NCBI GenBank assembly: GCA_008632985.1
Contig: QPGO01000092.1
Location: forward strand, 186,001-250,000
Source: Psammoneis japonica
Taxonomy: Eukaryota
Direction of reading: 5' to 3'
DNA length: 64,000 bases
Part shown: positions 2,531-64,000 of the stretch, one piece after another
Position numbering within the stretch: position 1 is the first letter of the stretch
Layout of the letters: the number at the start of each line of letters is the position of its first letter
Program-made: the position numbers and the translations under genes
Notes under the pieces: model-generated
The model's database searches: none
Told to the model about the DNA's origin: nothing
Seen by the model: only the letters and a program-made list of their open reading frames with translations

Positions 2531-5154
2531 CAGAGTTGGATAAATGCTGTGTGATGATGCTCAGGAAGCGTAAAGACTCATAACCACTCAGAATGCTGTA
2601 CACTACCTAACGAGTACGGGAGGTTCTCAACAACCCAAGAGGCAAAGAAATTACCACTCGGCCAATTGTTGAGTCCCTTCTCCGCACACACATTTAGGCA
2701 TGTGTTGTGCACAGCATCATCACACAGCATTTATCCAACTCTCCCTCTCGTCGCAGGATGGGTCATCGCCATGTGGCGCATCCGCACGGCGGACTTACGA
2801 AATTTTGACCATGCACTCCCTCTGTTGGGCAGGCGGATGGGTCAGCGCCATGTGGCGCATCCGGCCAATGCCAAGGGAGGAGTGGGTTCGAAGCCCAACC
2901 GCCCACCCCGGATGGAGTTGGAAAGGGGCAGGCCGAGAAAGAAAAGGAGGCTTGGATTTGAGGCCGACTCGAGCCAGCGACCTCAGGAAGCGCAAAGACT
3001 CATGGCCACTCAGAATGCTGCACACCACCTGACGAGTGCGGGAGGTTCTCAACAACCCAAGAGGCAAAGAAATTGCCACTCGGCTGGTTGTTGAGTCCCT
3101 TCTCCGCACACACATTTGGGCATGTGTTGTGCACAGCATCATCACACAGCATTCACCCAACTGCTCAGAATGCTGTGCACCACCTGACGAGTGCGGGAGG
3201 TTCTCAACAACCCAAGAGGCAAAGAAATTGCCACTCGGCCAATTGTTGAGTCCCTTCTCCACACACACATTCAGGCATGTGTTGTGCACAGCATCATCAC
3301 ACAGCACTCATCCAACTCTCCCTCTCGTCGCAGGATGGGGTGTCGCCTTGGGGCGCATCCGCACGGCGGACTTACGAAATTTTGACCATGCACTCCCTCT
3401 GATGGGCAGGCGGATGGGTCAGCGCCATGTGGCGCATCCGGCCAATGCCAAGGGAGGAGTGGGTTCGAAGCCCAACCGCCCACCCCGGATGGGGTTGGAA
3501 AGGGGCAGGCCGAGAAAGAAAAGGAGGCTTGGATTTGAGGCCGACTCGAACCAGCGACCTCAGGAAGCGTGAAGACTCATGACCACTCATGATGCTGTGC
3601 ACCGAGTGTGGGAGGTTCTCAACAACCCAAGAGGCAAAGAAATTGCCACTCGGCCAATTGTTGAGTCCCTTCTCCGCACACACATTTGGGCATGTGTTGT
3701 GCACAGCATCATCACACAGCATTTGTCCAACTCTCCCTCTCGTCGCAGGATGGGGTGTCGCCTTGGGGCGCATCCGCACGGCGGACTTACGAAATTTTGA
3801 CCATGCACTCCCTCTGATGGGCAGGCGGATGGGTTGGCGCCATGTGGCGCATCCGGCCAATGCCAAGGGAGGAGTGGGTTACAGCATTCTGAGTGGTTAT
3901 GAGTCTTTACGCTTCCTGAGGTCGCTGGTTCGAGTCGGCCTCAAATCCAAGCCTCCTTTTCTTTCTCGGCCTGCCCCTTTCCAACCCCATCCGGGGTGGG
4001 CGGTTGGGCTTCGAACCCACTCCTCCCTTGGCATTGGCCGGATGCGCCACATGGCGCCAACCCATCCGCCTGCCCATCAGAGGGAGTGCATGGTCAAAAT
4101 TTCGTAAGTCCGCCGTGCGGATGCACCCCAAGGCGACACCCCATCCTGCGACGAGAGGGAGAGTTGGACAAATGCTGTGTGATGATGCTGTGCACAACAC
4201 ATGCCTAAATGTGTGTGCGGAGAAGGGACTCAACAATTGGCCGAGTGGCAATTTCTTTGCCTCTTGGGTTGTTGAGAACCTCCCGCACTCGGTGTGCAGC
4301 ATTGTGAGTGGTCATGAGTCTTTACGCTTCCTGAGGTCGCTGGTTCGAGTCGGCCTCAAATCCAAGCCTCCTTTTCTTTCTCGGCCTGCCCCTTTCCAAC
4401 CCCATCCGGGGTGGGCGGTTGGGCTTCGAACCCACTCCTCCCTTGGCATTGGCCGGATGCGCCACATGGCGCTGACCCATCCGCCTGCCCAACAGAGGGA
4501 GTGCATGGTCAAAATTTCGTAAGTCCGCCGTGCGGATGCGCCACATGGCGACAACCCATCCTGCGACGAGAGGGAGAGTTGGACAAATGCTGTGTGATGA
4601 TGCTGTGCACAACACATGCCCAAATGTGTGTGCGGAGAAGGGACTCAACAACCAGCCGAGTGGCAATTTCTTTGCCTCTTGGGTTGTTGAGAACCTCCCG
4701 CACTCGTCAGGTGGTGTGCAGCATTCTGAGTGGTTGTGAGTCTTTACGCTTCCTGAGGTCGCTGGTTCGAGTCGGCCTCAAATCCAAGCCTCCTTTTCTT
4801 TCTCGGCCTGCCCCTTTCCAACCCCATCCGGGGTGGGCGGTTGGGCTTCGAACCCACTCCTCCCTTGGCATTGGCCGGATGCGCCACATGGCGCTAACCC
4901 ATCCGCCTGCCCATCAGAGGGAGTGCATGGTCAAAATTTCGTAAGTCCGCCGTGCGGATGCGCCCCAAGGCGACACCCCATCCTGCGACGAGAGGGAGAG
5001 TTGGACAAATGCTGTGTGATGATGCTGTGCACAACACATGCCTAAATGTGTGTGCGGAGAAGGGACTCAACAATTAGCCGAGTGGTAATTTCTTTGCCTC
5101 TTGGGTTGTTGAGAACCTCCCGTACTCGTTAGGTAGTGTACAGCATTCTGAGTG
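2531..5154. repeat. ~422-bp unit tandem array arranged as a large inverted repeat (about 3 units forward, then about 3 units reverse)
   Basis: ctcaggaagcg recurs at ~2560, 2982 and 3559 (a 155-bp internal duplication lies at ~3011-3165). Its reverse complement gcttcctgag recurs at 3911, 4326 and 4748. Orientation switches at ~3880. Confidence 0.95.
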
Positions 5155-5438
5155 TCAGTCGTGCGTCGGTGAGGTGGGCAATTCTACGTGAGTTCACTAC
5201 TAAAAACAACGTATGTAGCCTTCGTACAAATTTGTATGGGCAATTGAAGGCGATGGATGGACAGACGCTACCGCTTACTTGTTTTTTCCTGTGTAGGGTT
5301 GTATGAAAGACGCGTGTATGTAGAAATGTACTGCCGTGATGGTGGATCGTCGACCGCACGCTTTTCATCACGACGACGCTTGCACAGAGCAACCCAGACA
5401 AAAACCGTGTCTTTTATCGTTGCTTATTCACGTTAACC

Positions 5439-6384: not shown

Positions 6385-6431
6385 GTATTGTTTCTAAGAG
6401 AAAATAAACTATAATTGTAGTGTAAAGAATT

Positions 6432-7523: not shown

Positions 7524-7898
7524 TCGACGAGCAGGTGACGCGGTGCGCCTTATCGCCGGACTTTTCTTCTCATCATCGTCTCTCTCCGTTGGTTCCACTT
7601 TTTCGAATTGACAAATGTGTCTGATTTCTTGTAATTTGTCGCAATTGTATACCCTATAGACACAAAACATGATACTAATCCGTTGAAATAGGTATAGCTA
7701 CATTAAGCGTGTCATAAATGTATAAAGAGTTATAGCGCGAGGCGTCGTAGAAAAGACAGTTGATAGAGGCGCTCAAAATTTCAAATTTTTTGTGAGACCG
7801 AGCTGAAATCTCTTTCGTCCCATCATTTTCACCATGAAAGCGTAGCAGCGATGGATGACCTTTTGTGACTCTTCAAGAAAGAAGAATATCACTAGGTC

Positions 7899-10800
7899 GT
7901 GGAAACTTTGAGCATGTTTGACACATCGATTAGAAGCTTTCAAGAGAGAAGAAGAAGGAGACGGGACACTTACTTTGAGCCAACCGGCAAAGCGCACGCA
8001 AACGCTGCAAAAGCGTTGAAAGAAAACCCCGAGTACGCGAAGTATTCCAGACTGTTAAAAATTGGTATACCTACTGCAATGGTGAAGTTTGAGATTGAGC
8101 GTGATGGAAAAGATCCGTCTATTGTGAACTTGCCGGACAACGGCGTCTCTCCATCTCTTTCCAGGGACGATCAAGATGCAAAGTCGCAACCGGACATCTC
8201 CACTACCCGTAAATCGAGGGAAGCGTCACAACGAGCCAATATATATGAGATTGCAAGTGCATGTCAACAAACGAGGAAAGGTTCTTTAGGAGTTTTTCTT
8301 CAGAAGAAGCGGCCCAGTCTCAGATTTAGGGATCACGAAGTGGTTTCAATGAATGGCTCACTCAATCACCAGCAGGGTAGAAGAGATTCACCGTTACCGA
8401 AACTTGAAGAGGAGAAGCATATAGATGATTCAGACACGTCTGAAACTGCAAGCTTGTCCAACTCGCGAACGAGTATTGGTGACGCGGAAATACATCCAAT
8501 GAAAGAATCACGGTCGTTCGAGAAGGAGAGTATTGGTTGTCATCATAGCGCACACGAGGTAGTCAATGACAAACTGTGGGCTCATCGACAAACCATCATC
8601 GGTGAGAGAAAAAGTTCAACGGAGGCGTCAACCTTCATCGACGTTGCCGGCGATGATAGGCTACGCCGAGAAAACTTCTATAAAGTTGAAGGAAACGAAA
8701 GCTTGACTGAAAGGGTTGGTGGTTTAAGGGAAGTTTTTGTGAAAGCTTCTGACGATGGTAGCGACACAGAGGATTCATGTTCAAGTCTTCCTCAACAGCT
8801 TCTATCATCGTCATTATTGAGCAACGTAATGAATGAAGTGTCTCCAATCGAAGAAACGAACGGACATGAACTTCCTTTACGAGAAGATCCTCGATTCTCC
8901 AAGTATTTTAAAATGCTGAAGACAGGTGTACCGAAAGATGCAGTGAAGCATGCCTTAAAGCGAGACAATAAAGATCCCGGAATCATTGACCTCGACCCCA
9001 ACAAAAGTCATGAGTCCCAATGCAAAGTAGAGGATGCTACGGTCCGCGAAGACGAAGGAAGCAACAATGAGGATCCATACACAGAACTTCTTGAACAGCT
9101 TTTATCGCCGTCAATATCGAGCAGCCTTACCAGAGCGGTTTCTCCAATAGAAGAAAAAAACGGACGTGAAATTCCTCTACGAGAAGATCCTCAGTTCTCC
9201 AAGTATTTTAAAATGCTGAAGACCGGAGTACCGAAAGATGCGGTGAGGCATGCCTTGAAGCTCGACAATAGAGACCCCGGAATCATTGACCTTGACCCCG
9301 AGAAAAGTCATGAATCGCAACGCAAAATGGGAAAGGCTACCACAGGCAATGGCGATGGTAGCTACACGAAGGATCCGTACTCAGAACTCCTGCAACAGAT
9401 CCTAGCACCTTCAACGTCAACCAGTGCCATTAAGGGCACGCCAACGGAAGAAGAAACAAACAGCTGTAAAATTTCTCTGCAAGATGATCCTAAGTTCTCC
9501 AAGTATTTCAAAATGTTGAAGAGGGGTGTACCGAAAGATGCCGTGAGGCACGCGTTACGGCGTGACAACAAAGATCCGGGAGTCATTGACCTCGACCCCT
9601 TCGAAAGTCATGATTTCCAACGCAAATTAGTGGATACAACGGCCTGCGACAACGAAGGAAGCAATCTTGGGCCTCAAACAGCGACAAAATGTAGGCCAAC
9701 AATGGCCCAATGCGAGTCAGAAGTGAAAAGCTTATGTCAAGCTACTCCATCGAGTGAGCCTTCAGTAAACTTGACAACAACAGCCAGACCTTTCCGTCGG
9801 AAAAAGCTATATTGGACACCAATTGACACCAACAAAATTCATAAACGGACTATTTGGGCGCATTGTAGGGCTGATTTCTCCATCGAATCCCTAAAATATG
9901 ACGTTAAGGAGTTCGAACGACTTTTTATGGAAATCAATCGTCCAGCAGCAACGACGAATGCCGTAGGTGGCGGACAACGTCCGTTGATAAAACAGAAGAA
10001 AGGAGATCGATTTATTGATAGCAAGAAAGGGCTGAACGGTGGGATCATTCTCTCGAGGCTCAACATTGAATACTCCAAGCTTGCACACATGATTGATACA
10101 ATGTAAGGACCATTTTGATCGCCACATAATCGTCTTTGTGACCCATTCCGTAACTCACAACATTTATTTCCGCTGCGAAGGGACTACGGAAACCTCAATC
10201 CTATGCAGTTGCAATCAATAAAGAAAATATTGCCATCTTACGATGAAAGAAAGGCACTCTTTGAGTACGTCAGCGTCAACAACGCTTCAGCCGACAAGTT
10301 AGAAATGGCTCTGCACGATTTGAGTGAATGTGAAAAATTCATGGTTGCAATGCTGGATGTGCGTAGGCCGACGGAAAAGCTTGATTGCATGATCTTCCGC
10401 GACACGGTTTACGACCGATTAGATGAACTTGTTATCGCGTTCAACATTGTGCGCCAGGCATGCAATGAAGTCATGTCTTCTATGAGACTTAGGAAACTGT
10501 TCGCAATGATACTCACCGTTGTTAATCATATCAACACCGGTAGCGAGGGACGTTTGGTAGCAGGTTTCAGCTTGGACACTCTGCTAAAGCTTGGACACTC
10601 AAAAGCATTTGACAAGAAAACGACTATTCTTCAGTATCTCGTCAAAGTAACCAAAGAGAATGACGAGTCTTTGCTGTTTGTGAGAAGCGATATAGAATCG
10701 GTAGAGAGAGCATCCAGCATCCAGCTAGACAACCTGAATGCCGATCTCAAGACCCTACGAGATGAGCTTTACGAGGTCCAAAAATTCGTCAGTGACGACG

Positions 10801-11093
10801 ACCTCATTGTCGATGAAGAAGAAAGCGTGAGCGTTGAAAAGGACGTTGCTGATGACAAAAAGAATCCAATGAAAAGTTTCATATCGCGGGCGGCATCAGC
10901 TGTACAGGGTGCAGACAAAGCGTTTGATGAATTGAAGAGAAAGTATTCAAGAGCTCTGGATTACTACGGCCAAGACTCCCAAATGCCAAGCGAAGAGTTC
11001 TTCGGTACACTTCAGAAATTCGTGCGAGAGTTTGATGCGGCAGCAGGAAACATAGCAGCGTCGATAACGGGGAAAGCTCGCTCAGGGGGGTAA
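7899..11093 (+). CDS. Formin (FH2 domain) with four CCDC53/WASH-like 'DPxFSKYFKMLKxGVP' repeats
   Basis: RRKKLYWTPI, FIDSKKGLNGGIILSRL, GFSLDTLLKL, KTTILQYL and EEFFGTLQKFVREF are FH2 motifs. Intron 10103-10180. Repeats at ~8015, 8877, 9177 and 9477. Confidence 0.88.
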
Positions 11094-18831: not shown

Positions 18832-19332
18832 ATTTCGCTACTTTATAAGTTGAGGCTAGCCTCATGTTACCATGGGCCATCTCTAGCTCTTCGTTGACGT
18901 GGTGAGTCGTCTTGTTGTGTACTTGTACGCGTTCTTGAAGCCTCACAAAATGGGTGCTTGGCGCGTGAGACGTGAGTCGGCCTTTTGTCAGTCGTGCGTT
19001 GAATCTTGAGAATTTTATCCATCTACAAATAAAAATCAATACTGGCGATCTTGTAAATACAACCGTGTACACAGACATTGGCGTTGAAAATTCAACATCA
19101 TATTCATACTCTTTGACAATCATTCGATATATACACGTCCTCGTAGTTGTAGAATCGTGTGTACACAGGTGGAATGAAATTTCGAGGCATTTTCTTGTGG
19201 ATTTGGGAACGGGTTGGTTTCTTTTCGCAAACACATGCAAAACAACAAGATCGGCCATACTTAGCGTTTGTGGGAAGCCGCCCTGAGAATGCCACGCTAT
19301 TCATAACATTGAGAGTACAAGCAAAATAGAAA

Positions 19333-30790: not shown

Positions 30791-30973
30791 AGAAAATTAC
30801 ATACTGTAAAAACAAAGTAGTAGAATGACGCGCTGAAGTAGAGCACACGCGACTTGCTCACTATGTGCGGAAACGACACCCATAAGATGATATAAAACTG
30901 ACTAAGGAAATGTTCGCTGCGACAAAACATAGTTGTACACGATTGGAAATATTACAGGTACAACCGAACTGAG

Positions 30974-44866: not shown

Positions 44867-45089
44867 TGCGTCGTGTGATGTTGTGAAACCTGCGGAACTC
44901 GATTCGTCGTCGGTAGCAACAATCGCTTCGCTTCTTGGGCTTGCAGCTCCAAGTCTATTGAGTCTTTGCACATGAAAAAAGTCATAAGTACTTTAAAGCA
45001 GGGAGGCGAAGCCGATAGAAGTTCTCAATAGACATGTCTGAGACACACATCTTTTCGCCGTTGTGGTCGGATTTGTGACGGTGATTTGA

Positions 45090-47890: not shown

Positions 47891-47922
47891 AATTTGTCAT
47901 GGTCTACAGGGGAAAACTATTT

Positions 47923-49062: not shown

Positions 49063-49674
49063 GTAAACGACAGAGCCAAAGATTACGAGAGCAGACTATA
49101 TGGAAGCCTTGTCGATGCGGCTGATCCGACGGTTCAAGGGTATGGTGTACTGTTTCTACTTCTATTCAAACCAAAACGTAAGGCCCTGTTTTTGCTCAAT
49201 GATGCTTCAGCTCATGCATGGCTGGGGTCGTCGGTTCTTGAGGAGTCGTCTGTGTCGATCGCGAGATCGGTGACGATGTATCCATGATGGGCGTTTGTGA
49301 TGCTTTGTGACCTTTGTGTATTTGCCACGTCACTCAACGGCTAATGAAATCAACTTCTTATTTGCTTCTGTAGGTTTTCATAAAGTCATTCACCGCATTT
49401 CTTTAGACGGAGTACCGTGCGTTTAATAAATAAAATAAATAAGCCTTGAATACTACTTGAAGATATATAAAAACATATGTATGTAGATTCAATTTTTTAC
49501 TATAGCAAAAAGTGAGTCTGTACTCGCAGCACGTACGCGTCCACGCACATGCAACGTGAATAAAAACCGCACGTCCAAGAAGCCACCGACAAGCGACCTC
49601 TTATCTTGTTGTGCTTTATCATCTTTGTCTTGTAATCCACTCTTGCTTTTGTTGTTTGTGTTTTGGAAGATACA

Positions 49675-52600
49675 ATGGCTGCTCCAACACTTACTTATAT
49701 CCCCGAGCCTTTTGAAAGGGTGAGTAAGACGTCGACTTCGTGACATGACGCGACCCGTACCTATCACACAGGTCATTTCTCCCGCCTATCGTCATTCTTA
49801 CTACGACGCGCGTAGAATTTTACGCATGGGATCTTGAGAAACACATCAAAAAAGATATACCGATTGCTTCCATGGCGTTCCTGCCCTGATTAACATCAAT
49901 ACTTACCATATTTTCTTCTGTTGTTGCTGTCGTAGCCTTATTATGAAGCCCTCTTTGCTGCAGCCGACACGCAACGAAGCGGCAACATTGGCGGTGCGCA
50001 AGCCGTACCTTTTTTCCAACTCTCCAAGCTGCCCGTCGATTCCTTGAAGAACATTTGGACGCTGGCGGATCAGAACCCAACCAATGGCTACTTGGATAAA
50101 CGAAAGTTTGGAATTGCAATTCGGTTGATTCAGTTACAGCAGAACGGGCAAAAGGCGCAGGGAGCTAATCTCGAGGCTCCTCCCGGAGTTGTGCTTCGTC
50201 CAGCCATGTTTGAGGGCGTCAGCGGTGTATCGGCGCCTTTACCTCCCGCTCCTGGGGCTGCTCCACAACAAGCGCGTCCTACTAGTCCACAACAGCACAT
50301 GCAACCGCAACAACATCAACAGCCCATGAGAGCTGCCACTCCTACTTCGCCCATGCAACAGCCAATGCAAGCTCCCACCCCACCTTCGCCAGTACCGCAA
50401 CCAATGGCTGCACCTGGGGCTCCACCGACTCCGCCACAACAGGGAGGAAGTATGGCTCTCACTACGCAAGATCCATATGCAATGTTGCCTCACGACTTGT
50501 CCCGATATGAAGTTCTCTTTCCACAATATGACACGTCCAATGATGGGTACGTCTATGGCAAGGAGGCGGTGGAGTTGTTTTCCAAATCGGGTTTACCACA
50601 GGATCAGCTCAGGCAGATTTGGAACATGGTGGATCAGCCGGTGGACAATCGTTTGGATGTGTTGGAGTTTTCCATGGCGATGCATCTTATTGTTTGTGTC
50701 TCCATGAAAAAGCTGCCCCTGCCTCAGCAGTTGCCGTATTCTCTCAAGCTTTTGAAACAACAAAAGCAACAACCGGCGGCGGCGGCACAGCCACAACCAG
50801 AAATGGGCATGGCCGCCCCACCGTCTCCTGGACGCCCACCGCTTCATCCTCCAATGCAACAACAGCCACCTCCTGCCATGGGCGGTATGATTCCACCTGC
50901 ATCCTCGGCGGATTCTGTGGGAGGCGGCAGCATGGGCGGCGCTAGTAGTCTGAGTGGTTTGCCGGGACCTCCCCCAATTGTTCAGGGTGGTACCGGATTG
51001 TCCAGCATTACCGACGCCTTTGAGGGACTTACAACGACGCCACAAGCGTCCTATGACGCCTCGCCTGTAATGCCAAGCCTGGATCATCCCGCGTCACCTC
51101 CAACCATTCCAGAGCCAGAACCTGCACGGTCCATTCCAGAACCAACGCCGCCCGTTGTGGAAACCATTCCCGAGCCTACTGCCGTCATGTCTGCACCAGC
51201 TCCTGCTCCAGTCCCACAGGCTCCACCCAAGGATACCAAACAGCTTGCTGCCGCGTACAATATGGGCGATGAACACGAGGAGCTTGGCAAGCTCAAGGTG
51301 ACGCTGCAGAAACTACAGGCGGAAACATTTCACTCAAGGCGCAGTTGGGAACCATGACGGATGAAGAAAAGGAGGTGCAAAAGGAAATTTCCGCCACGGT
51401 GGCTGAGATTGGTACGCTTTCCAACGAGCTGACCTCGGTTCGTGCCAAGGTTCTAGCCGCCAAGTCGTCCTTGTTGGAGGCGACTGCCGAACTCAACAAG
51501 CAACGAGAGAAAAAGGGGTGAGTGACTGTCGTTTATACATTATATTTTTCTGTTATGTATTCATACTCGGAGCATTCTCATCGTTGCCACTCGTTCAATT
51601 AATCAACAACAGGGCTGTTAGCGATCTCATTAGCGAAGCTCAGTCGACAAAGGATGCTCTCGATGCTGCAAACGAAGCGATTGCCGAAATCAACAATTCC
51701 CAACACGCAGCTGCAGTCGCACCTGCGCCTGCTGCAAACTTTGATGACGATTTGTTTGGGTGGGGTAACGATGCTCCGGCTCCGGCTCCCGTGCCTGTAG
51801 CAAATGATACGGGTCCAGAACCAGCTACCGTAGAAACACCGGCTCTAGCTCCCGAGCCTGAATTTCATGAAAAAGCAGCACCCGAAGTGCACACGGATCT
51901 TCCGCCTCCTCCACCTCCTGCTGGTGGACCTCCTCCGGCATCTCCTGGAGGCTTTGGTGGCATGCCTGGGTCTCCCGGAGGCTTTGGCGGAGCTCCTTTG
52001 GTGGTTCGGCTGGAGATTCGCTCGGAGTCGACACAACTTACGATCCAGCCTCTCATTTTGGTGCGTCAAATCCTGAACCGCCCGCTGTCGAAACCGTCAC
52101 GAGTGCTCCGTCACAGGAAGAAATTGCGGAACTCAAGCATGCCTTGTCGGAAGCCGAGTCTACCGCTACCGACGCCGAAGAGCAGCGTCGCAAGTTGGCA
52201 GAAAGGGCAGACTTGCTCCGACGGGAAGCGGAAAAGGCCGATCAAATTGCAAAGCAAAAGGACGAACATGCACACGAGAAAAAGAAGGGCCGTTTTGGTG
52301 GTCGCGGAAAGAAGAAGGAACTTGTAAGTTGACACAATCAGCAACGCTTATTCCGATTTGAATCATTCACTCACGTACTATTGTACTTTCGTTATGCTCG
52401 GCAGAAACAAGCGGAGCAGCTCTTGCAAGAGGCTGCCGATAAGAAGCGTCAATTCATGGAGGCCCAGGCGGCAGCTCAACACGCATCGCAGGTGGCAATG
52501 GAGACCAAGTTCCAGGCAGACAAACTCCGAAAGCAAGCCGAGGCTGCCGAACTGGAATCTGTCAAGAATGCGTCAATGATGGATGCTCAACCTCAGAACA

Positions 52601-52914
52601 ACAATAACCACAACACGTCGGCGCCGCTTTCTTTTCCACCACCAGAAAAGCAACCAGAAATTCAGCATGACTTTAGTAGCAATGGCGGTACCATGGGAGT
52701 GGGAGGCTTTGAAGTTGGATATGGAGCCGGTGTCATGGGCGGTGGTGGACTTAGCATACCGACACCAAGTGCTACGGACGCACCCAACACCGATGGAGGT
52801 TGGGGTATAATGGGCGGCATGGGTGGAGCCAACAGCGGAGGAGGCGGTATGGATGGGATCCCAACGCCGCCGCAATCCGCTGCTGGAGACGATCCATACG
52901 CAAATCCATTTTAA
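49675..52914 (+). CDS. EH-domain endocytic adaptor (Eps15/Ede1-like)
   Basis: Two EH domains (LKNIWTLAD...GYLDKRKF; FSKSGLPQDQLRQIWNMVD...EFSMAMHLI), Pro-rich regions, coiled coil and a C-terminal NPF. Introns and frameshifts present. Confidence 0.88.
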
Positions 52915-53003
52915 ATGAAAACCTGGAGTCGACTCGTTGAACGCCGAGATCAGGTCACAGCAAATTACACGAGCGAGCTTCCATTACACATTGTAAAGCG
53001 ACT

Positions 53004-53340
53004 AGCTAGCGAGGGTTTGTATTCAACGCATTTACCCCGTTTACTCTTTACGTATTCCTTGAGCAGTAGATACTACGAATAGTTTCCTACAAACGAGCGC
53101 ACGTTCAATCAATCTCAATCATCTCCATTTCATTCATGACAGCAGCAGCATGTCCATTTTCCAATCGCTGTTTCTTGGCGACGCCTCCGTTCACTTCTGT
53201 GGTACGCTTGCGTGACGTGCTACTTGCCTCTGACTTGCGTCGGGTCAACAACTTCAATCTCATCATCGTCTTCTTCTCATATTCCTTCTTGGAAGCTCCC
53301 TTGGCGGAATCGTCCGTTTTTGGCTTCCGTACAATATATT
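53004..53340 (-). repeat. Diverged duplicate of the UBA2 3' coding end and 3' flank
   Basis: tagcgaggg...tacgtattccttgagcagtagata...tcaatcaatctcaatca...gcagcagcatgtcc...ttggcgacgcctcc at 53007-53190 matches 53585-53785. Confidence 0.85.
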
Positions 53341-53700
53341 CGACTTGTCGTCCCCAATGACATCAAGAAATTCCCTTCCTCGTTGTCTTCGTCATCTAGC
53401 TCATCTCCGTCACTAGAAGCTCCGACGCTTTGCATTCTTCCAGAGAATGTGCCGATCGGTATGAGCGCCGGAGTGAGATCCTGTATGGAGATAAATATCA
53501 TGTCCCGTATGCATGGGGGGCCGCATGATAGTCTTCCTCTTCGTGTTCTCCTTCCTCTTCGTTATGAACGCTGAAGTGAACTATAGCGAGGGTTTTTATT
53601 CAATAATGTTTACACCCATTACGTATTCCTTGAGCAGTAGATATTCTGCATTACAAATAATAGTCTCCCATTCCCCGTGTGCAAACAAACGAGCACAAAT

Positions 53701-55651
53701 TCAATCAATCTCAATCACCTCCACTTCACTCGCGGCAGCAGCAGCATGTCCGTTTTCCAATCGTTGCTTTTGGCGACGCCTCCATTCATTTCCATGTGAC
53801 GTTTGCGTTTGCTTGACTCTGGCTTGCCGTCCGGTTCCACAACTTCAATCTCGTCATTGTCCTCTTCTTCTTCTTCCTTCTTTGGAGCGTCCGTTTTCCC
53901 ATTGGATTCTGGTTTCTTGACTGCCGTCGGCTTGTCGCCACCAACGACATAGGGATGTTCCTCATCCACCACGTCGTCCTCTTTGTCCCACACTTCCTTG
54001 TGTGTTACACAGACATCCACCTCCAAATCTTGCGAAAAGTCTTCAACACGAACAATAGTGCCCTGCTGAATACCGCCACAGGGCAACTTGGACAGGACCT
54101 TTTTCATATTCACCTCAAACGCAGAACTGTCCGCGTCCTGTCCTTCTTCGTGAATGATATCTCCCTCCAATAGAATGGTGGGTTCTTCAAAGCCCAATTC
54201 GGCTTTGATAATCTTGTTCAACAACTCCTCGAGTGTCCACTTGTGAACATTGAGAGTAAGGGAAATGGTGGCGTTGCGACACACAAAGCATTTTGGGTTG
54301 GGATCGGGAGTGGAATAGGTTGCAAGTAGAGTCCCTTACGTGACTTGTTGCGAACACAAAAGGTCAATCGGCACAAATCCTTAATGCCGGGTTTGTCCTC
54401 CTTCGATGCAGATGACGCCGAGGCTTGAACTTGAAGAATATGAAAGGCTTGAAGGACTTGTAGACCCGCCACAATGGCATTGGTGGTGGCAATGGCCGGG
54501 ATAATGTTACCGGCAATGCCCTTGGCGGAGTAGAGGGACTGCAAAGGCTCAATACCAAAAACGTGAGAACGGAGATTGGAGGTTGCCGTGACGAATCGCA
54601 TGGCCAACTCGTCGTCCTTGTCGAATTCGGGCAAGAGCGGTGATGCCGTGGTAGCATCCACGAGGCACGCCGTAAACTCGGCAATGCACTCCCTGTCGGA
54701 CCAAATGGCCGTGGAAGAAAAGGACGGAGACTTGGTGGGACACACAGCATCCGCGGCAGTTCCTGCTGCAATGTCGTCCTTGGAGAGCGGCTTGGGTGTC
54801 ATCTTGGCCGTCTTGTAGCGGTCCATCTTGATTTGCTTTTCAATCTCGTCGTGATAGAGCGTCGACAAGACTTGAGACGCTGCCTTGCTAACGTCTGAGG
54901 GATCCGCCTTGGTTCCAAGTTGGGCCCTGTAGTCCATGACGGCTTGCATATACGTGCTTGGCTCCTCTCCGCTCATGTCTTCGTGCAACATGCTTTCTTC
55001 TACTTTCGGCCCAAACAGCAACTTGTAAAGCTCCTTGGCCCATACAATGGTATGCACAGGCATGGACGGAGTCGATCGAATGGTACAAATGGGATACACC
55101 TTTTGTGTCGGTTTCGCCTGACACTCGTAGCACTCGACATTGCTCGCCTTGTCTATCACGGTGACTTGTCCGAGATAACCCGTGGTTCCGGCTTCAATCA
55201 GCGGGACACCGGCTGCCAGACAGAGACGATTGACACGACGACGTGCCGTAAGATTGTCGAGTGCGTTCAATACCAAATTGAATTGCGACACAAACTGCAC
55301 GTTGAACTTGGTATTGTCACATACGTTGCCGTGATGAGCAATGTACTTTGCACTCTCGCCGGCCGTTGCCATTTTCAGAGTAGCCTCGCACGCGACCGTA
55401 CACTTGGGCATACCGACATGTTGCATACGAAAGAGGAATTGACGATTGAGGTTGGAAACGTCAATGGTATCCAGATCAATCACTTCGACCTGCCCAAAGC
55501 CACTCAGCGCGAGGTTTTTGAGCAATTCACACCCAATGCCACCGGCACCCACCAACAAGATTTTGCTTTTCAGAATCTTATCAAACAACTCGGGGCCGAC
55601 TGTGGCTTTCAGACCATCAAGAGGAGAAGGCTGTGTGGGAGTTGACGTCAT
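53701..55651 (-). CDS. UBA2: SUMO-activating enzyme subunit 2
   Basis: LVGAGGIGCELLK, DTIDVSNLNRQFLF, catalytic PICTIRSTP, GNIIPAIATTNAIVAG and a UFD-like domain. C-terminus ...EVEVIEID* (TGA 53703-53701) after small frameshifts at ~54300 and ~53770. Confidence 0.95.
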
Positions 55652-56002
55652 TGTTGTTGATGACGGGGATATGCTATGGCTTGCTTTGCTGTCTTTGTTT
55701 GCAGAAGTGGGGCGGCGGCGGCGAAAGTGAAAAGATCGCGATCATTGCTTTCGCACAGAGAGAGAGAGAGAGCGGACAGTCGGACAGACCCTCGAATTCC
55801 CGCGAATCTCGTGCCTCCGTCGTACGGTTCAAGAAAAGCTAGCTCTTAGCTACTTCTAAGAGTGTAGAGAGAGAGCAGAAGCTTGGAAGGCAAACTTCCC
55901 AACCCAAAACTACAGTACAGTACTATGCTATGGATAAACGAGCCAAACTATTTTAACTTTTCCTTTCTACTGTATTGTTCAGAGAAGTACACTACAATAC
56001 CT

Positions 56003-58713
56003 CTAGCCCTGGCTTTGCACGGTCGCGCAGTCACCAGCACCATCGTTTGTTGTCAGAGGATACTTTGGATAGATTCGTTTGTACAGCGGCAAGCAGACGG
56101 TATCGTGTTGCTTGATGGGAGCATTGAACAAACATTTCATGGTACCGTGTTCACCCACACTTTCAATAATGTTGCCATGAAGTCCGTGCTTGGTGGTGAG
56201 TCCGGCAGGCTTGAACCATTTCACGTCGTCGGGATTGTAAAACATGTACTTGACTGTGGCGTGCCGTTTGTGCACACGAACGGGATAGCCCGTTAAAATG
56301 ATGCGCTTGACGACAATGCGTTCCGCGTCCGGCTCCAAGCATGGAGCCAATGGCAACCAATTCACGAGTAGGCGGTCCTTCATCAACATTGTTTGATTCT
56401 CGAAACACCAGCACTGGACAAGGACTGTACGTGACGGGTCCAAAGACACTGGCTGCAAAAAATGCACCACCCTGCGGAAGGAAGCGTTCAAACTTGTGCT
56501 TGTCACTATTGAGATTGTTTTGACTAAACACCGGTCGTGCCTTCCAAGTTCGCCATCCACACCGAAAGGTTAACACGTCCTTGCTCTTGATGGGAACTTG
56601 GCTCTGATCGCACTTGGACGACTGACTCAAGCCCATGTGCATGACGGAAATCTTGTTTTCGTGTGGCAACAGGGTGATGGCCGTCACAAAACTATTTTCA
56701 GCATATTACCAAATGCTTGCGGAGATACATGCTCAAGTGTTATCGTCACGTAACTTCCAGAAGGAACGCAACCGTCCAAAGATCCTCGTCATCACTATCA
56801 TCATCAGATCCGACTTGCATTTTTTCTTGTCGTTCCTTGTTACTGCTACTTCCCCAAAAATCTCCATTCGCATGCACTGCAGCTTTTTGTACGTCTCTCA
56901 TGTCTGCCATGACATCACGCTGTGTCGCTTTGAAACTCGAAAAGTGGTAGACGGATCCAAAGCTCTCGGGTAAGTCTTCCTTGGGATCCCAATACGACTT
57001 GCGAAAGCTCTTGAGCGATCGGTATCGCGCAAAGCGATCACGCGCATTCTCGTCCTCGTTGAGTTCCACTTCGTCCGGAAACTCCAAGTCCTCTTTTAAA
57101 TCGCGGCGTCGTTGTTCAACCAAGGCCTTGCGTTCCTCGGCCGATACTTCCATATCGTCCTCGTCCTCCAAGGTCATTTTGGTCTTTTGATTGAGTGCCT
57201 TGGCAAGCTCCCCGTGATCCAATTCGTCTTCCAAGGCCGAATCGTCGGGAACGGCATCGAGCCACGCGGATTGGTAGTCGGACCATCCGGCAGGGCGAGC
57301 CACTCCCAGCCCGTTACCATCCTCCTCCTCTTCTTCTTCATCCACGGGATCCATGGCTTCATCAAAACCAATTAAATTCTGTTCTCCCTCAAGAGCATCG
57401 GGTGTCGCCAGCATCGTGAGACTTTCTCGCTTGGACGGATCCGACAATAAAACGTCGTACTCTTCCTCTTTGGACTCATCCATGGCATTTTGCTTCTTTC
57501 GCTTGTGTCCAAGCGGACTTGGTGCTTTTTGTACATGCTTGCAGGCAAACGTTCCCATGTGAGGAACATGTACGAGAGAGTTCACATTCCATGGGATGGA
57601 TCCACGAACAAAGCCCGTGAGTTGAACCTCTTGTTGCTCTGCATTGTACGTGGTTGCGTGCGAAACAAGGTAGGCTCGTGGAGCATCGGCAACCCACTTG
57701 GGTGGCGAAGCTGCCATGTTGCAGAGCGTCCGCACCAAGGCGTGGAGGACGACTGACTGCTTGTCGCAGTCGTGACAGCCGTGCCATCCTCGTCCATGTT
57801 ATCATCCACGTCTTGATCCAAACTGGTCAAGTCAATTTCCATCACCTTGTCATGGTCTTGACCAAACTCGGTAGTGGCAAACCGCGACACGTATCGCTTG
57901 AGATCCATTCGTCGTTTCAGCGCGGATCGTCGTGTACTCTTTGTGGATTGCATCGTCATGTAATCCTCGGTGAATTCTTCTTCCTTGACCGTGTGTGCCA
58001 AGACGGTGATGGGAGTGGGAAGTCCCTGAGCCTTGATGGCGGTCAAGATGGAATCACCTCGTTCGCTAATCAAGTGATCCCAGTTTCTTCCAATCGTTGT
58101 AGAAGAAGAGGTGGATTTTGCATCGCTTCCAATTTGCATACCCAGCACTTCCGATTCTTCTTCGTCATTTGGTCCATTCCCATCAATAACAAAGAGAACA
58201 ATATGGCAAATGCGGCATAAATCAAGTACCGCCAACACGGCGTCGTTGTCATTGTCGGTCGTATTCGTGGTCAAGTACGTCAAATTTCCGTCCTTTTTGT
58301 GAACATTGTACTTTGCCGTAGTTGCTGTGCTATTGTCATCGTTGTTGCCATGAGACACAACCTTGTCGGCACCTTTCAATAAAAACGACTCGACAGCACG
58401 TTCGATTCTGGTGTCTTGTCCCAAACTCACAATTCCAACCAGTCGCGGGGGCGGTGTCGCAGCAGAACCAACAATGCCACGCTTCTTATCCAACAGAGCC
58501 TGACGACTGGCTTGTCGTCGTTGTTGAATTTGATGACGACGATTGGCTTTGGAGTTCTGAATCGCATTGGAATGCGACAAAGACTTGAGTCCCGTTCTTT
58601 TTCCTACAATCTTCCACCGGCATTTCGAGAAAGGCTTCGTTTCGAGGCATTTGAGCGCTTGTTGCGCTTGTTGCTCTGTTTCAACCACCGGCTCGATGAT
58701 GATGAGACGGCAT
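56003..58713 (-). CDS. TSR1: Pre-rRNA-processing protein TSR1
   Basis: Start MPSHHHRAGG(L)KQSNK, AQGLP, FPDEV...ARDRFARYRSLKSFR...WDPKE, LLPHENK and KRIILTGYP...YMFYNPDDVKWFKP...LYKRIYPK. Several 1-nt frameshifts. Confidence 0.92.
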
Positions 58714-59091
58714 GGCTGTCTGTCGTTATGGTGTCTATAGCACACTCTACTTCTCTTCCCCGCTTGTGTCGTACTGTACACTATTTGTATTCGCCTCCGG
58801 CTTTTGGTTGAAAGAACAACAGTGGTTGTTGTCGGAGGGAAAAACGAAAAAATGTGAGCAGATCTGGAGATCGATGGTGGCGCAGAATCCCGATAGCGCC
58901 ATAACCCGTTTCTTATGCAACGCGGTCGAATGACGGACGAACTTTTCAATTTTGCCGCCATCCATCATTAAAGTTCCAGTGGCGCCACAATATCAGGAGC
59001 AACTCCTATTTCTATGAGTTTGACTGTACAGTAATGAAGGAGAATCAATCTTTATGTATACCGGTAGACTTTGATGTTACGTGCACATTTC

Positions 59092-59766
59092 TCAAAACGC
59101 AGTTTCTTTTGGATCATAACCTTCAAGTGTTCCCACAATGTCGTACTTGTTTTTAAATGTATAAATCCATCCCTGCAAAGCACCCTTTTCTGCGAGACTT
59201 AATGGCTTTTTTCGTTCTTCTTCCGTCTCTTCGTCAAGCTTGCTCTTGGCAAGCAACCGCGTCGCATCTCGGCCCGCAAAGATATGGTACTCACAACCAG
59301 GTCCATAAAAGTGACGTCCCTTCCAAACATTATAAACATCGCCATCTGCGGCAAAAAGTAGTGGACCGGTTTCGTCCGATCCATCGTATTGCGCCAGCTC
59401 GGCCTCGGTCCAAGGTTCTTTTCTGGGTGCGATATATGCCAATCTCTCGCGTTCTCGCAGCAATTCCGCATTTTTGGCTTGCCATTCGGCGTATTCTGCT
59501 TTACGGGCTCGTTCATCCGATCCGCTTAGCCAAACGGCGGTGCCAATTGCGACAATAACTCCTCCAGCTATCATTGCTGTTTGCGATTCCATCTGGAGTG
59601 AAACCGATCGTTGCTTTGGATTCATCATTGCATTTTGTTTTTGAGTCCGTTTTGATTGTTGAGCGATGGCGACTCTCTGAGTCAGTAGCGGCTGCAGTGC
59701 GTCTAAGCAGCTATTCAATAACGCCAACACCAGCAGTGGGGTGAAACAATGACGACGGCGTGTCAT
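59092..59766 (-). CDS. Cytochrome b5-like heme/steroid-binding protein (MAPR family)
   Basis: ELAQYDG...VYNVWKGRHFYGPG..YHIFAGRDATRLLA...W...FKNKYDIVG, preceded by a signal peptide and a TM segment. Confidence 0.92.
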   Translation of the reverse strand: MTRRRHCFTPLLVLALLNSCLDALQPLLTQRVAIAQQSKRTQKQNAMMNPKQRSVSLQMESQTAMIAGGVIVAIGTAVWLSGSDERARKAEYAEWQAKNAELLRERERLAYIAPRKEPWTEAELAQYDGSDETGPLLFAADGDVYNVWKGRHFYGPGCEYHIFAGRDATRLLAKSKLDEETEEERKKPLSLAEKGALQGWIYTFKNKYDIVGTLEGYDPKETAF

Positions 59767-60502
59767 GATGGCAAGGATGACATGGTCAAGTCGACAGATA
59801 CAGTATACAGTCGATAGCTCGTTACACGTCTAACTTTCGTCCCATCTCCCATCCCATGACCCATGATTTCAGTGTCATTGTGTCGTACAAAATGGTTGGA
59901 GAAGGTGTACAAACCAATCAACTCCCGCAGCTTTTTACTGTCTGTGCACGATCGCGACCCCCAGACCCCGACGACACTCCACAACAACAACAAATGGCAA
60001 ACGTCTCGGTCCATCACGTCCTCACTCCCTTCCTTCTTTTTTGCTCTGTCCTTGACAGAAAAGCTGTCCACACGTCATTTGCAATGTGCCTTGACAACAA
60101 GAGATGCTGAGGAGCTCCAACTGACTGACGACATGAAACTCGGTGGCAAGCTGGTTTTGGAGACGGGGACATCTGGCAGCTGTGCGGGGCAATCCCATCT
60201 TTGTCAAAACAAATTCATCTCATTTTTTCTCAAAACAACATTGGCCCTATTGGCATCGGGTGTGCCTGTGTGCAAGGCACTGAAGGACAACACGACCTTC
60301 GTGCGCCACACAGATCTCGAGCTTGAGGAAAATGTTTGAGTTGACAATGAGAGTTCAAAGCACACCTGAGAGTTGCTGGAGGAAAATCAAATTCCAAGGT
60401 GTTTGCATCTTTGTTGAACTGACACCAGAGATGATGGAGCAGAGGACAAGATTGACAAAGGTGCTGCCCGGAACAAATCAGTTGTTGAAACCTCACATGG
60501 AC

Positions 60503-61608
60503 GCGCTCCAGCTCCAGGTGGGACCTCGCAGCACTGAACTGTGACATCAATGGTTTTTTGGATCGCACCATGTGTCGCGCACGCAGATGGCTGCGTGTGA
60601 CATTCTATGAAATTGTTTCATGCTTCCCATTTTGCGAAGCCAAAGGCTTTCTATTTTCAACATTTATGACAATGAAAATGCTCTGGGTGTGTTCTTCAAT
60701 GTCTGTAGAATGTGCCCATGTAAACTGTTGTTCATGTGCTGCAAGTGTGAAGGAGGAGACACGTTCGTAAAATTGCCTCTTTTTCTGATGGCCATCATGT
60801 GCATTTTTGTTGATCAACAATTTCAACGCAGAGCTCTCACGCAGAATTCTGCGGGCCCAATGTCACACGGAGTCCCACCTGGGATTGGAACCCGTCCACA
60901 GATCTGCAGAGAAGCCTCGCTGGAAGCCAAGGTGCCAAAGCGGTGGATTGGGGGGAACCTTGCCCAGAGCAAAGCAATTCAACCAGTTGGGCTTGGCACA
61001 AATTACATTGGTGATGAAGGTGCCAGAGTCATTTCCAAGTGCTTTGTTGAGAACAAAGCAGCTTTGTGCTCACACTTCTCTGCAGCAACCAAATCGGGGA
61101 TGAAGGAGCAAAAGCCATTGGACAGATGCTGCAAAAAAGAGTTGCATGCTGAGGGATCACAACACTCATGAGAATCAGTTTGGCAGTTCTGGGAAGATGG
61201 CGTCAGTGCAAGAGTTGAAGGAAACTGTGGTTTCCCGTGCTTGGTTGATGGGGAACAACGTTGGGCAGGAACTTGCATCTGAAATCAAGGGCTGATGCGT
61301 TCCAGCTCTAGGTGGGTCCTCGCAGCACTGAACTGTGACATCAACAGTTTTTTGGATCGCGCCGCATGTCGCGCACGTAGATGGCTGCGTGTGACATTCT
61401 ACGAAATTGTTTCATGCTGCCCATTTTGCGAAGCCAAAGGCTTTCTATTTTCAACATTTGTGACAATGAATTTGCGCTGGGTGTGTTCTTTGATGTCTGG
61501 AGAATGTGCCCATGCAAACTGCTGTTCATGTGCTGCAAGTGTGAAGGAGGAGATGCGTTTTTAAAATTGCCTCTTTTTCTGTTGGCGATCATGTGCATTT
61601 TTGTTGAT
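60503..61608 (+). repeat. ~310-bp direct repeat pair (60503-60814 and 61297-61608)
   Basis: tccagctc.aggtggg.cctcgcagcactgaactgtgacatcaa...atcatgtgcatttttgttgat is present twice. Confidence 0.93.
60960..61150 (+). pseudogene. Fragment of RNI-type leucine-rich repeats
   Basis: LGLGTNYIGDEGARVISKC and, in another frame, LCSNQIGDEGAKAIGQMLQ match the LxLxxNxIGDEGAxxL consensus. Confidence 0.65.
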
Positions 61609-64000
61609 TAAGGTTCCGAATGGACCTGCAACCCGGACATGCTCCATGCAAAAATGCAGCAGCGCTGCGTGGAGGGGAATGCGTTGGAATCTACACCAAC
61701 ATGCCACAGTTCTCAAAAATCATGAAAATCTCAGAATGCGTGCAAATGACAATGGCGTTTGCAGCGCTGTGTCGACAGCGCTCCTTCACCTTCCACCCAA
61801 TCTCAAGTGGTGTTGGATGGACAACGCAGCGATGCACTTGATTCTGAAGCATGGTGGCCATCCGTCACTCCCCCTTTGTGATGTGGAGAATGCAATGCGT
61901 GGGAAGCGTGATGCCACCGCGACGGAACGGGACCGATTCAACACCCTCGGTGCTCATCACACTTGCTGCAAGTTTGGATTTCGAGAAAATGGTTGCAAAT
62001 GTTACAAAGAACAGCGTGATTCATTCGTCACCATTCCAAGGATTGCGCCAAACTGCTTCATTCAGAACAAGACGCTGTTTCAAGATGCGCACAACGCATT
62101 GGAGAATGCCGGTTACACTCGCGCCCCGGACAAAAAGAGTTTGGAGACAGAAGACACCGAATCCAAGACAAGTGCATCAAAGATCAGTGGCTCTAGTTTC
62201 AATCATGATGTGGAGAAGGGTGGCAGCTCTCCTGAAACTCGGCACAACAGTGGCAGCATCGGTTCCAGTGCCAGTGCAGACGACAACAAAGAAAATTTCG
62301 CGTTGGACTCGTCATTTGACAACATGACCAGCTGCAAGAAGTCTAGCATCAAAATGGATGACAAGTGGATGAAAGACATGTTCAATCACAATCGAAAGTG
62401 CGGTCATGATGCGAGCTTGGTGGCTAGAACTAATCTCTCATTCGGCTTGAAAGAAGTTTGGCGTTGCTCGTTTTGTCGGAAGGAAATGGTGTGGTGGCCG
62501 GCGGAACAAGTGAAGCAACCATCAGGCCAACTTGTGTCAGAAGATTTGGTTCTTGTTGTGTTGGCTTCCATTGATGCTGGAGTCTCCAGAGAGAAACTGC
62601 AGGAGCTTTGTGCAGGGTTTGGTGGGGTGTGCCCGCCGAAATCTGCAATCGACGAGCAATTCAAATGCATTGAGAAGGTTGGGCTAGCTGTGGTGAAGGA
62701 ACAACTACTTCAGAATCGCAGAGAGCATGTGGAAGAAAGCAGGAAGCAGCGACATTGTGAGGGCGACTTTGAGTTTGCCAATCAAGACAGCAAGCATCAC
62801 AGTTTCGCAACGGGACCGACAAACAATGATGGTGGCGGACCGATGCAATGGATCTGCCATCGAGTCAAAGGTGTGCTTCATTGCTTGGTCTGCATTGGCT
62901 TGGTGACAGGCAAGCCACTTGCCACAATTGTAGATCAAATCAGCTGTGGTGCTTGTTCCCGTGTTGTCCCCATGTGTCTAAAAACCATCCTGAAAAGCAA
63001 CATGGCGACATTCGTCCCGGCGAGATTGATTTCTCGCATGATGGCTCGTGTTCTCGGAACTCGAAGTACGGCCCCGGGGTGGCAGAAGAGCATGCCAACG
63101 TCAAACTTGCAAGAGAGCTGCTGTTGGACGATGACGGTGCCTTCCGGTCCGATGATGTGGGCATTGTGCCCCGTGAGATAACTTCAGATGGGGACACAAG
63201 AAGCATCGTTGCATTTGTAAAAGAGCAGCGTGACATGGTCGGAGATGCTGCTGAGGGATTTTCGCAGCAGCTGCCTGATGGTGGGCACATGACAAAGATG
63301 GTGAAAGGCGGCTGCTTCACATTGGCATCAAAGAACCCTGAGTTCAAAAAGGGTCTTTCGACTCCACGGACAGAGGCCATTGTGTCAGATTATTCTCGAC
63401 GCATGTCCCTGCATCATCACGTGCTTCTGATTGTCGAGAATCGACAGCAACATGTCAGGCACAGCAAAGATGCACAAGAGACCATGGAACAAAAGTGCAA
63501 GAGACTTCTCTGGTTATTTTCATTCAAGCACCAGCAAGACAAGGCAAGAGAAAGATGCTTGAACGGCCTCCAGTCAATTGTTCCTCACCACTGTGGAGAC
63601 CATAGATTGTGCAATTTGCGCAACTGCAAGCACCTTCAAGCAGAGCGATGAGTTCATGTGAGAGCAGAACTAGACAAAGCTGCGCCCCTGGCAAAAGGCG
63701 ACTTCAACAAGCAGGTTTGGGAGCTCTGTCAAAAAGAGGCTCGGTTTCACGGAGCGACGATGAAGGTGTCCAACAAAGGAAAGAAAGTTCTGACTAAAGT
63801 TGTCACTTCAAGAGCAAATGAGTCCAACATTGATCGGGTTGCACGGCTGAGTGATGGAAATGGAGTCAAGAATTTTTTTGCCTTTGTGAACAAGTGGACG
63901 GAAGGAAAGTGGATGTGCTTTGGGCAATCGGACACATTCACATTTCTCTGTTGCTGTGTCGCAGCACGAGCTGGAAACAGAGAATTCACAACCAAGGTTT
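61601..64000 (+). pseudogene. Mutated DDE transposase resembling the Pfam 'Mutator-like transposase' family
   Basis: Ordered motifs CSFC, VLASIDAGV..EKL..LCAGFG, NDGG, CIGLVTGKPL...SCGAC, CSRN...GVAEE, TSDGDT, DGGHMTK and HHCGDHRLC resemble DG..TGK..CxxC..CxxN..GDGD..HxxK..HxxGxHxxC. Frameshifted. Confidence 0.65.

Follow-up and report, generated by a model that had tools for sequence, protein, structure and literature searches.

To our knowledge, the context-specific mutators of DNA that were known to act in genome defence until 2026 all produced C>T changes: fungal repeat-induced point mutation (RIP), editing by APOBEC enzymes, and the decay of 5-methylcytosine (5mC). RIP makes TpA out of CpA. 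It has been characterized as a strong C>T mutation of repeated sequences (bioRxiv 10.64898/2026.01.13.699255). A process specific for TpA that changes A:T to G:C has been reported once before, without an enzyme, in a preprint on the rhizarian alga Bigelowiella natans, where it hypermutates integrated viral DNA (Mettrop et al., bioRxiv 10.64898/2026.01.13.699255). Here we describe the footprint of such a process in a diatom, Psammoneis japonica, which makes diatoms the second major lineage in which it is seen. The window that was analyzed is the whole 64-kb stretch from positions 186,001 to 250,000 of contig QPGO01000092.1. In three islands of this window, in-place conversion (by T>C or A>G) has turned TpA into CpA or TpG and has left the genes next to them unaffected. 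One island is a palindromic satellite array, another is a degenerate insert present in single copy, and the third is a high-copy repeat joined to a Mutator-like transposon. As a phenomenon, and leaving its chemistry aside, an in-place, island-restricted TpA>CpA/TpG hypermutation is very probably what these islands record.

According to the sections of the B. natans preprint drawn on here, 302 new nuclear single-nucleotide mutations arose, of which 231 were located within two regions of integrated viral DNA; of these 231, 230 were A>G or T>C, and the GC-biased ones all lay on TpA. Coding sequences poor in TpA were enriched in DDE and reverse transcriptase (RT) domains, and an ADAT2-like deaminase is put forward there as an untested proposal (Mettrop et al., bioRxiv 10.64898/2026.01.13.699255). 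The P. japonica islands have in common with that system a TpA>CpA/TpG footprint on both strands and a long-term depletion of TpA with enrichment of CpA/TpG in clustered 1-kb windows. In B. natans the footprint is confined to foreign or mobile DNA and spares the normal genome; the diatom islands hold a transposase with a high-copy repeat and a satellite, flanked by normal genes, together with a single-copy island that has no Pfam match. The two cases differ in host (Stramenopila here, the chlorarachniophyte branch of Rhizaria there) and in targets (giant-virus and virophage inserts there; a palindromic satellite, a single-copy fossil and a DNA transposon here). They also differ in depth, the observed/expected ratio of TpA being 0.05-0.24 in the diatom islands and 0.45 in the B. 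natans region derived from nucleocytoplasmic large DNA viruses (NCLDV). CpG decay coincides with TpA loss in the diatom and is not mentioned in the preprint sections covered. Finally, mutations were measured directly in B. natans, whereas the diatom process is known from its footprint, and transition purity is less clean in the diatom (36 of 45 variable columns in the array) than in B. natans (230 of 231 mutations).

The diatom footprint is the deeper of the two and lies on transposon, satellite and fossil DNA, nested with CpG decay, which suggests that the process is widespread in the stramenopile-alveolate-rhizarian (SAR) supergroup. It further suggests that the target is silent chromatin and not viruses only, and that the process strongly shapes the decay of transposable elements (TEs) in major marine primary producers. 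If genomes that carry the signature were compared with genomes that lack it, there could be fewer candidates to consider for a natural enzyme that edits adenine or modifies thymine in DNA. An earlier sequence-only reading of the window had stated that its author knew of no characterized system of this kind, a statement that the B. natans preprint has made out of date. Our literature search for a precedent in diatoms found none, and that preprint was the only report of the phenomenon that it returned.

Dinucleotide composition and variation among array copies

Dinucleotide contents were expressed as the observed/expected ratio (rho) and compared in 1-kb and 500-bp bins over the whole 64-kb window. 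The rho of TA is 0.24 in the array (2531-5154; 30 TA), 0.05 in the single-copy island (45100-47880; 9 TA) and 0.13 in the transposon island (59930-64000; 34 TA), as compared with 0.55 (2040 TA) in the remaining 54,524 bases. In the same order, the three islands have rho values of 1.45, 1.87 and 1.56 for CA, 1.42, 1.75 and 1.57 for TG, and 0.66, 0.28 and 0.66 for CG, and the corresponding values for the remainder are 1.14, 1.18 and 0.99. In 1-kb bins, TA rho lies at 0.02-0.16 over 3001-5000, 45001-48000 and 60001-64000 and at 0.33-0.87 in the other bins. The 109 background bins of 500 bp average 0.55 (standard deviation 0.13, minimum 0.29); a TA rho of 0.25 or less, below this minimum, together with a CA+TG rho of 1.3-2.1 was found in 18 of the 19 bins within the islands, and the sole bin outside this range (2501-3000; TA rho 0.45) straddles an island edge. 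Across all 500-bp bins, TA rho and CA+TG rho are negatively correlated (r = -0.67).

The edges of the islands are sharp, in that dense TA ends at 45029 and returns at 47888 around the single-copy island, and the transposon island starts at about 59940. In the 1-kb flanks on either side of the islands, TA rho is normal (0.49-0.64), and genes at a distance of a few hundred bases have been spared. These ratios and flanks bear out the sequence-only reading in its description of three regions that have lost most of their TA beside normal genes, and its hand counts (4 TA in 45301-47000 and 12 TA in 44401-44700) proved exact. Within the islands each NTAN context is reduced, to 0-0.42 of background (0.03 for GTAC, for example), and the expected product contexts are raised (e.g., GCAC, 2.39). 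CA approximately equals TG in each island, and both strands have been struck about equally.

CpG has been lost from the same islands as TA (CpG rho 0.05-0.67). This component is like the decay of 5mC, which turns CpG into TpG/CpA, with CpG rho lowered to 0.28-0.66 across the islands and to 0.05 within the core of the single-copy island. Decay of 5mC, however, cannot remove TpA, and the TA sites of the array have been hit far more often than its CpG sites. In the islands, TpA loss has been much faster than CpG decay, and the latter extends over a narrower core. Since CpG decay and TpA loss have affected the same islands, CA and TG form a sink for both of the self-complementary pyrimidine-purine dinucleotides. 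Diatom TEs are CG-methylated through DNMT5, and in Phaeodactylum loss of DNMT5a depletes methylation and derepresses young TEs (according to the sections of PMC9998398 drawn on here).

The variation among repeat copies is most informative in the array, an unstranded feature at 2560-5154 in which a non-coding unit of 422 bp is present about three times per arm, with the second arm inverted and copies that are 92-98% identical. The whole forms a near-perfect palindrome, with arms of up to 723 nt that are 97% complementary. Its TA-poor core spans 2700-5040 (TA rho 0.13), and the outermost 100-250 bp retain more TA than the center. Pfam, tRNA and Rfam scans gave no match to the array; a tRNA-like look of its unit is unsupported, the tRNA and Rfam scans of the window having come back empty.

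Five full and two partial units were aligned, giving 45 variable columns, of which 36 contain transitions only and the other 9 contain transversions or several states. At 8 sites TA, CA and TG all occur in different copies, which bears out what the sequence-only reading had noticed by eye; the other variable sites include 2 with CA/TG, 2 with CA/TA and 3 that involve CG. Transitions account for all changes at the 12 TA-type sites. The inferred unit has 12 TA sites, 10 of which differ from copy to copy, as compared with 3 of 24 CpG sites, and changes among copies are strongly enriched at TpA relative to other contexts (20 of the 24 columns at TA positions are variable, and 25 of the 398 at other positions; odds ratio 75, p = 3e-18). 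Four families of genic tandem repeats in the window served as a control in the same respect, and their 255 variable columns contained 0 CA/TA/TG sites and 0 CA/TG sites.

At the three-state sites, parsimony makes TA the ancestral state, because TA alone lies one step from both CA and TG. The double mutant CG is never present at these sites, as would be expected if a site is no longer targeted once it has ceased to be TpA. Units that are mirror-image partners in the palindrome frequently disagree in the derived state of a given site (e.g., CCA vs. TTG), which indicates that the hits were independent and took place in situ after the array had been built. Moreover, the derived states at successive TA sites within single copies are mixed. 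The hits fall site by site and strand-symmetrically, and not in same-strand runs. Over all sites, partner units have some derived states in common and disagree elsewhere.

The single-copy desert and the transposon island

The second island (45030-47887, unstranded) takes up the entire intergenic interval that separates two genes of the minus strand and holds 9 TA in 2.86 kb (TA rho 0.05, CA 1.87, TG 1.73). Nested within it is a CpG desert (45281-47032, unstranded) with 5 CG (rho 0.05) and 5 TA (rho 0.05) in 1.75 kb and with CA and TG at about twice their expectation; the TA desert is the wider of the two. The sequence-only reading was right that TA had been lost, and the CpG depletion of the same islands needs to be added to its description. 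Three degenerate tandem copies, 77-87% identical, lie at the right end of the island (46838-47880, plus strand). The copy nearest the edge retains CpGs at sites where the inner copies have CA/TG, and the three together show 16 CG-vs-CA/TG sites, 6 CA/TG sites and 2 sites that still have TA. None of the 20 stop-to-stop open reading frames (ORFs) of the island matched Pfam.

Contigs from two runs of one sample (X1 and X2) were aligned to 44001-64000 at a likeness of at least 80%. At this likeness, contig depth is 62-76 over the second island and 55-60 in the flanking genes, which indicates that the island is single-copy. X2 behaves like RNA, as read from contigs that skip GT..AG introns; X2 contigs give no cover over the island, a result that is not evidence on its expression.

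The third island begins with an unstranded segment (59940-60499) that holds a single TA (rho 0.03) and lies between a cytochrome-b5-like gene and the high-copy repeat. At the k-mer level this segment is single-copy, since one X1 contig spans 58634-60528, including unique flank, at a depth of 68. The sequence-only reading had called the islands non-genic repeats and the process repeat-targeted. They are indeed free of genes, and the struck DNA appears to be silent DNA that includes repeats; however, the second island and 59940-60499 are single-copy and not present-day repeats, so that a restriction to repeats is too narrow.

The high-copy repeat itself (60500-62009, plus strand; TA rho 0.15) includes two direct 315-bp copies, at 60500-60814 and 61294-61608, that are 91% identical. 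Their 28 variable columns comprise 4 CA/TG, 4 TA-vs-CA/TG and 4 CG-vs-CA/TG sites. Summed contig depth over 60009-62009 reaches 15,000-41,000, as compared with a baseline of 55-60, which points to hundreds of copies. In a large number of contigs, 60.5-60.9 kb runs straight into 61.3-61.6 kb, and most copies would therefore be without the 794-nt spacer seen here. The Pfam scan lends no support to a leucine-rich-repeat-like stretch that had been noticed by eye around 60.84-61.27 kb, and the ORFs of this island outside the transposase gave no Pfam match save one chance-level hit (E 0.009). Over 62010-64000, TA rho is 0.13, and contig depth (190-320) suggests roughly 3-5 copies.

The transposase is a Mutator-like (MULE) pseudogene on the plus strand (61718-63999) that runs off the end of the window. 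By tblastn, 61718-62983 is read in frame 2 and 62986-63999 in frame 1, and the TGA at 63649-63651 is in frame. It matches PF20700 of Pfam weakly (E 1.3e-5, which does not reach the curated cut-off), and a word-indexed protein search with the ORF at 61601-63181 found no match. Homologues nevertheless number 149 (best E 1.8e-29, at most 45% identity). Hypermutated TE copies escape homology-based annotation.

Tyr codons contain TA, and Tyr makes up 0.4-0.7% of the transposase ORFs, as compared with 1.3-3.2% of the host genes of the window and a median of 2.5% in the 95 of 149 homologues that are at least 150 aa long. Columns were called Tyr-rich if Tyr occurred in at least 40% of 32 long homologues, and at the 8 such columns the window transposase has W, C, I, S, F, H, H and C, that is, no Tyr and four His/Cys. 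The codons of these four residues (CAT, CAC, TGT and TGT) are each one TA>CA or TA>TG step from a Tyr codon. Among all sequences scored (n = 84), the median Tyr fraction at such columns was 0.6, and the window copy is one of 3 without any. A metagenome search with a 7-sequence alignment recovered 2 related loci, and a scan with one transposase protein alone found no relative. Both loci have ordinary TA rho (0.64 and 0.71), which indicates that the family is not intrinsically TA-poor and that the window copy has lost its TA. The outgroups have TA or Tyr at positions that are CA/TG or His/Cys in the window. One homologue, P0217 (319 aa, Mutator-like), has 0 Tyr and 9.4% His+Cys and may be a TpA-hypermutated copy in another organism. 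In addition, transcription of a diverged Mutator-like copy is suggested by an X2 contig of 1191 nt that aligned to 62319-62948 and differed from it at 82 positions.

Both TA-poor regions in this half of the window contain many long overlapping stop-to-stop ORFs on both strands, as TAA and TAG are impossible in TA-free DNA; those of at least 70 aa number 22 in 45000-47900 and 28 in 59900-64000. Long spurious ORFs that arise in TA-free DNA with few stop codons could be taken for genes by gene finders.

Target and candidate mechanisms

The direction of change, TA to CA/TG in non-genic islands and opposite to RIP, was proposed by the sequence-only reading and is supported by the array copies and by the polarity of the outgroups. 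The footprint is like the RIP of ascomycete fungi in being a context-specific transition hypermutation that ruins mobile DNA, leaves neighboring genes intact and has sharp edges. RIP, however, creates TpA from CpA, with a raised TpA/ApT index in the repeats it affects, and needs duplicated sequence, whereas here TpA is destroyed. RIP itself is rejected on direction, with TA rho down to 0.05-0.24, CA/TG up and TA ancestral at the three-state sites, and its duplication trigger is rejected because the second island and 59940-60499 are single-copy and yet the most depleted parts. APOBEC-type editing is rejected because TC/CC loss is not seen (TC rho 1.00-1.08 in the islands), and GC-biased gene conversion because AA and AT are not depleted as TA is. 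Ultraviolet-type damage is unlikely, since the shifts in the second island, where CC is slightly lower (rho 0.67 vs. 0.89) and TT slightly higher, are small beside the TA loss.

The target looks like a silent-chromatin state rather than repetition as such, because the single-copy parts are the most depleted and the islands carry the CpG-decay footprint that is expected of methylated DNA. We propose that a chromatin-directed process of genome defence or decay acts on silenced, cytosine-methylated DNA, with sequence duplication as such being no trigger, and that it could be the same kind of process as that measured in B. natans mutation-accumulation lines. Adenine at 5'-TpA-3' on either strand would be deaminated to hypoxanthine, which would be read as G at the next replication, and the agent would likely be a deaminase of TadA/ADAT2 or bacterial-toxin ancestry. 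We put forward enzymatic adenine deamination at 5'-TpA as the leading, if tentative, account of the chemistry. The natural tRNA substrate of TadA/ADAT2 is U33-A34, which would already give a preference for T before A. These enzymes, ADAT2-3, ADAR and the base editors derived from TadA resemble the footprint in their A>G outcome and in preferring U/T before the edited A, a preference that the Discussion of the B. natans preprint gives for ADAR (bioRxiv 10.64898/2026.01.13.699255). They differ from it in being RNA enzymes, or engineered or exceptional editors of DNA, and the same-strand clusters of processive editing are not seen here. The adenine deaminase or adenine modification named as agent by the sequence-only reading stays a supposition, and scans of part of the 107 ORFs of at least 120 aa in the window detected no deaminase domain.

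Several observations count against TpA hypermutation as proposed, or against the deaminase step within it. One internal TA of the array unit (CGTAAG) is intact in all 6 of the copies that cover it, so that exposure of TpA is unequal, and 11 further transition columns of the array lie outside pyrimidine-purine sites, so that the specificity is strong and not absolute. At two array sites (alignment columns 15-17 and 355-357; window 2599-5154) TTA has become CCA in some copies. The direction of change in the second island is given by composition alone, TA being left at only 2 variable sites there. The Tyr comparison is small, and 4 of its 8 columns hold W, I, S and F, which single TA transitions do not predict. 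Differences between contigs and window, counted irrespective of context, are neutral (A>G plus T>C, 283; G>A plus C>T, 335; transversions, 300; 40 of the 966 difference rows displayed). X1 and the assembly may share one source sample, and no sequencing platform is recorded for X1. With respect to deamination, derived CA and TG states are not clustered by strand (runs z of -0.4 to -2.4 in the islands and -0.25 to -4.1 in the background), which argues against bursts by a processive single-strand deaminase, and the scanned ORFs show no such enzyme. Lastly, the evidence is a footprint in one 64-kb window. As an observation of its own, the TTA>CCA change at two independent array sites hints at spill-over onto the neighboring T of the same strand.

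The alternative with most in its favor places the chemistry on thymine: a dioxygenase of the TET/JBP type would oxidize thymine at TpA to 5-hydroxymethyluracil (5hmU) or 5-formyluracil (5fU) as a silencing mark, and occasional mispairing of the product with G would give T>C, which appears as A>G on the other strand. This supposes that 5hmU or 5fU would pair with G at a sufficient frequency. The site-by-site, strand-symmetric pattern without same-strand runs is somewhat closer to what a decaying symmetric mark would leave than to the work of a processive single-strand deaminase, and the pattern coincides with the footprint of 5mC decay at CpG in the same islands. There is also a precedent in the SAR lineage, in that dinoflagellates have a non-cytosine modification on repeats, overlapping with 5mC: their 5hmU is made by TET/JBP enzymes and helps to silence TEs (PMC11572971), and it is enriched on repeats in Breviolum, with a preference for TA/TC having been reported in work from the 1980s (PMC11071213; in the sections of both papers drawn on here). 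Dinoflagellate 5hmU is, however, a mark and not a mutation footprint, the base-resolution data from Breviolum show no sequence preference, for TA or otherwise (PMC11071213, sections covered), TC is not depleted in the diatom islands, and our literature search found no report of 5hmU in diatom DNA, the papers listed that name both being about dinoflagellates. We regard thymine oxidation as rather unlikely. A further alternative dispenses with a dedicated enzyme and invokes a peculiar spectrum of damage, replication error or repair in silent compact chromatin that favors A:T>G:C at TpA, such as a TpA-specific lesion that is poorly repaired. It would agree with islands that are defined by position (sharp edges, single-copy parts) and not by homology, and with the lack of burst-like clusters. 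We know of no spontaneous process with such specificity for TpA, and the per-site excess among array copies that have kept 95-98% identity (10/12 TA vs. 3/24 CpG sites) is very large. The process was, furthermore, on in only 11 of 15 B. natans lines and is regarded by the authors as regulated (bioRxiv 10.64898/2026.01.13.699255, sections covered), and taken together we judge an enzyme-free origin to be improbable.

It is conceivable in principle that the islands are foreign or mobile DNA that was TA- and CpG-poor from the outset, or that has been kept so by selection, for example to avoid a TA-cutting nuclease or TA-targeting insertions. Many viruses do suppress CpG and UpA (as noted in the sources covered), and the second island has no recognizable relatives. 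The copies of the tandem array, however, differ precisely at TA sites and with alternative derived states, a transposase stripped of Tyr cannot function while its relatives have normal Tyr and normal TA in their DNA, and the bias is common to three unrelated sequences and absent from the genes between them; such an origin is very improbable. We give still less credence to an artefact of sequencing or assembly, in which base-calling errors at modified bases (A to G and C to T) would mimic mutation. The affected dinucleotides, TA and CG, each of which ends up as CA/TG, match those expected if A and C were both modified, and the platform is on record neither for the assembly nor for X1. Long-read base-callers do err at methylated motifs. 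Yet the k-mer contigs of X1 reproduce the assembled bases: one of 4169 nt (depth 61.8) covers 44001-47231, most of the second island, with 0 differences, and the contig over 58634-60528 has 0 other letters and 1 gap. A depth of about 60 and contigs of up to 315 kb are not expected from noisy reads, X1 and the window disagree at genic sites here and there, so that X1 is not a mere copy of the assembly, and the X2 contig from a diverged transposase copy also aligned to the window. The bases of the second island have been confirmed in this way over 44001-47231, a check that is partial, given the unrecorded platform.

Returning to TpA hypermutation of silenced DNA, a broader proposal can be made around it. 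Diatoms may have a natural, chromatin-guided TpA editor of double-stranded DNA, acting by adenine deamination or thymine oxidation, that, in concert with CpG methylation, puts transposons, satellites and further silent DNA permanently out of action, and this could be the same ancient, SAR-wide 'inverse RIP' defence as in Bigelowiella. We consider this proposal possible, if doubtful.

Neighboring genes

Outside the islands, the window is ordinary gene-dense nuclear DNA of a diatom. Pfam identifies genes for eIF1A, ribosomal protein S8e, mTERF, a signal-peptide peptidase, an rRNA methylase, two formins with CCDC53-like repeats, a DUF1800/DUF1501 pair, an EH-domain protein, a SUMO-activating enzyme, Tsr1 and the cytochrome-b5-like protein. 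The best relatives of the ORF for the SUMO-activating enzyme (SUMO-E1; 54218-55651, minus strand) reach 67% identity, and the hits that carry an organism name are all from diatoms (Attheya, Thalassiosira, Skeletonema, Cyclotella, Seminavis, Nitzschia and others). The two formin genes (7896-11090 and 19330-22590), which have the FH2 domain, are paralogous, and each is preceded by tandem coding repeats with a CCDC53/WASH-like motif, with periods of 300 nt and 192 nt and identities of 72-83%. In the region of the EH-domain gene, X2 contigs skip 49719-49934, 51517-51611 and 52324-52404, all with GT..AG ends, which are introns. The DUF1501 and DUF1800 genes lie next to each other on the minus strand (36333-41270). 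Such a pair is typical of planctomycete-type bacteria, and its presence in a diatom nucleus could possibly reflect an old gene transfer.

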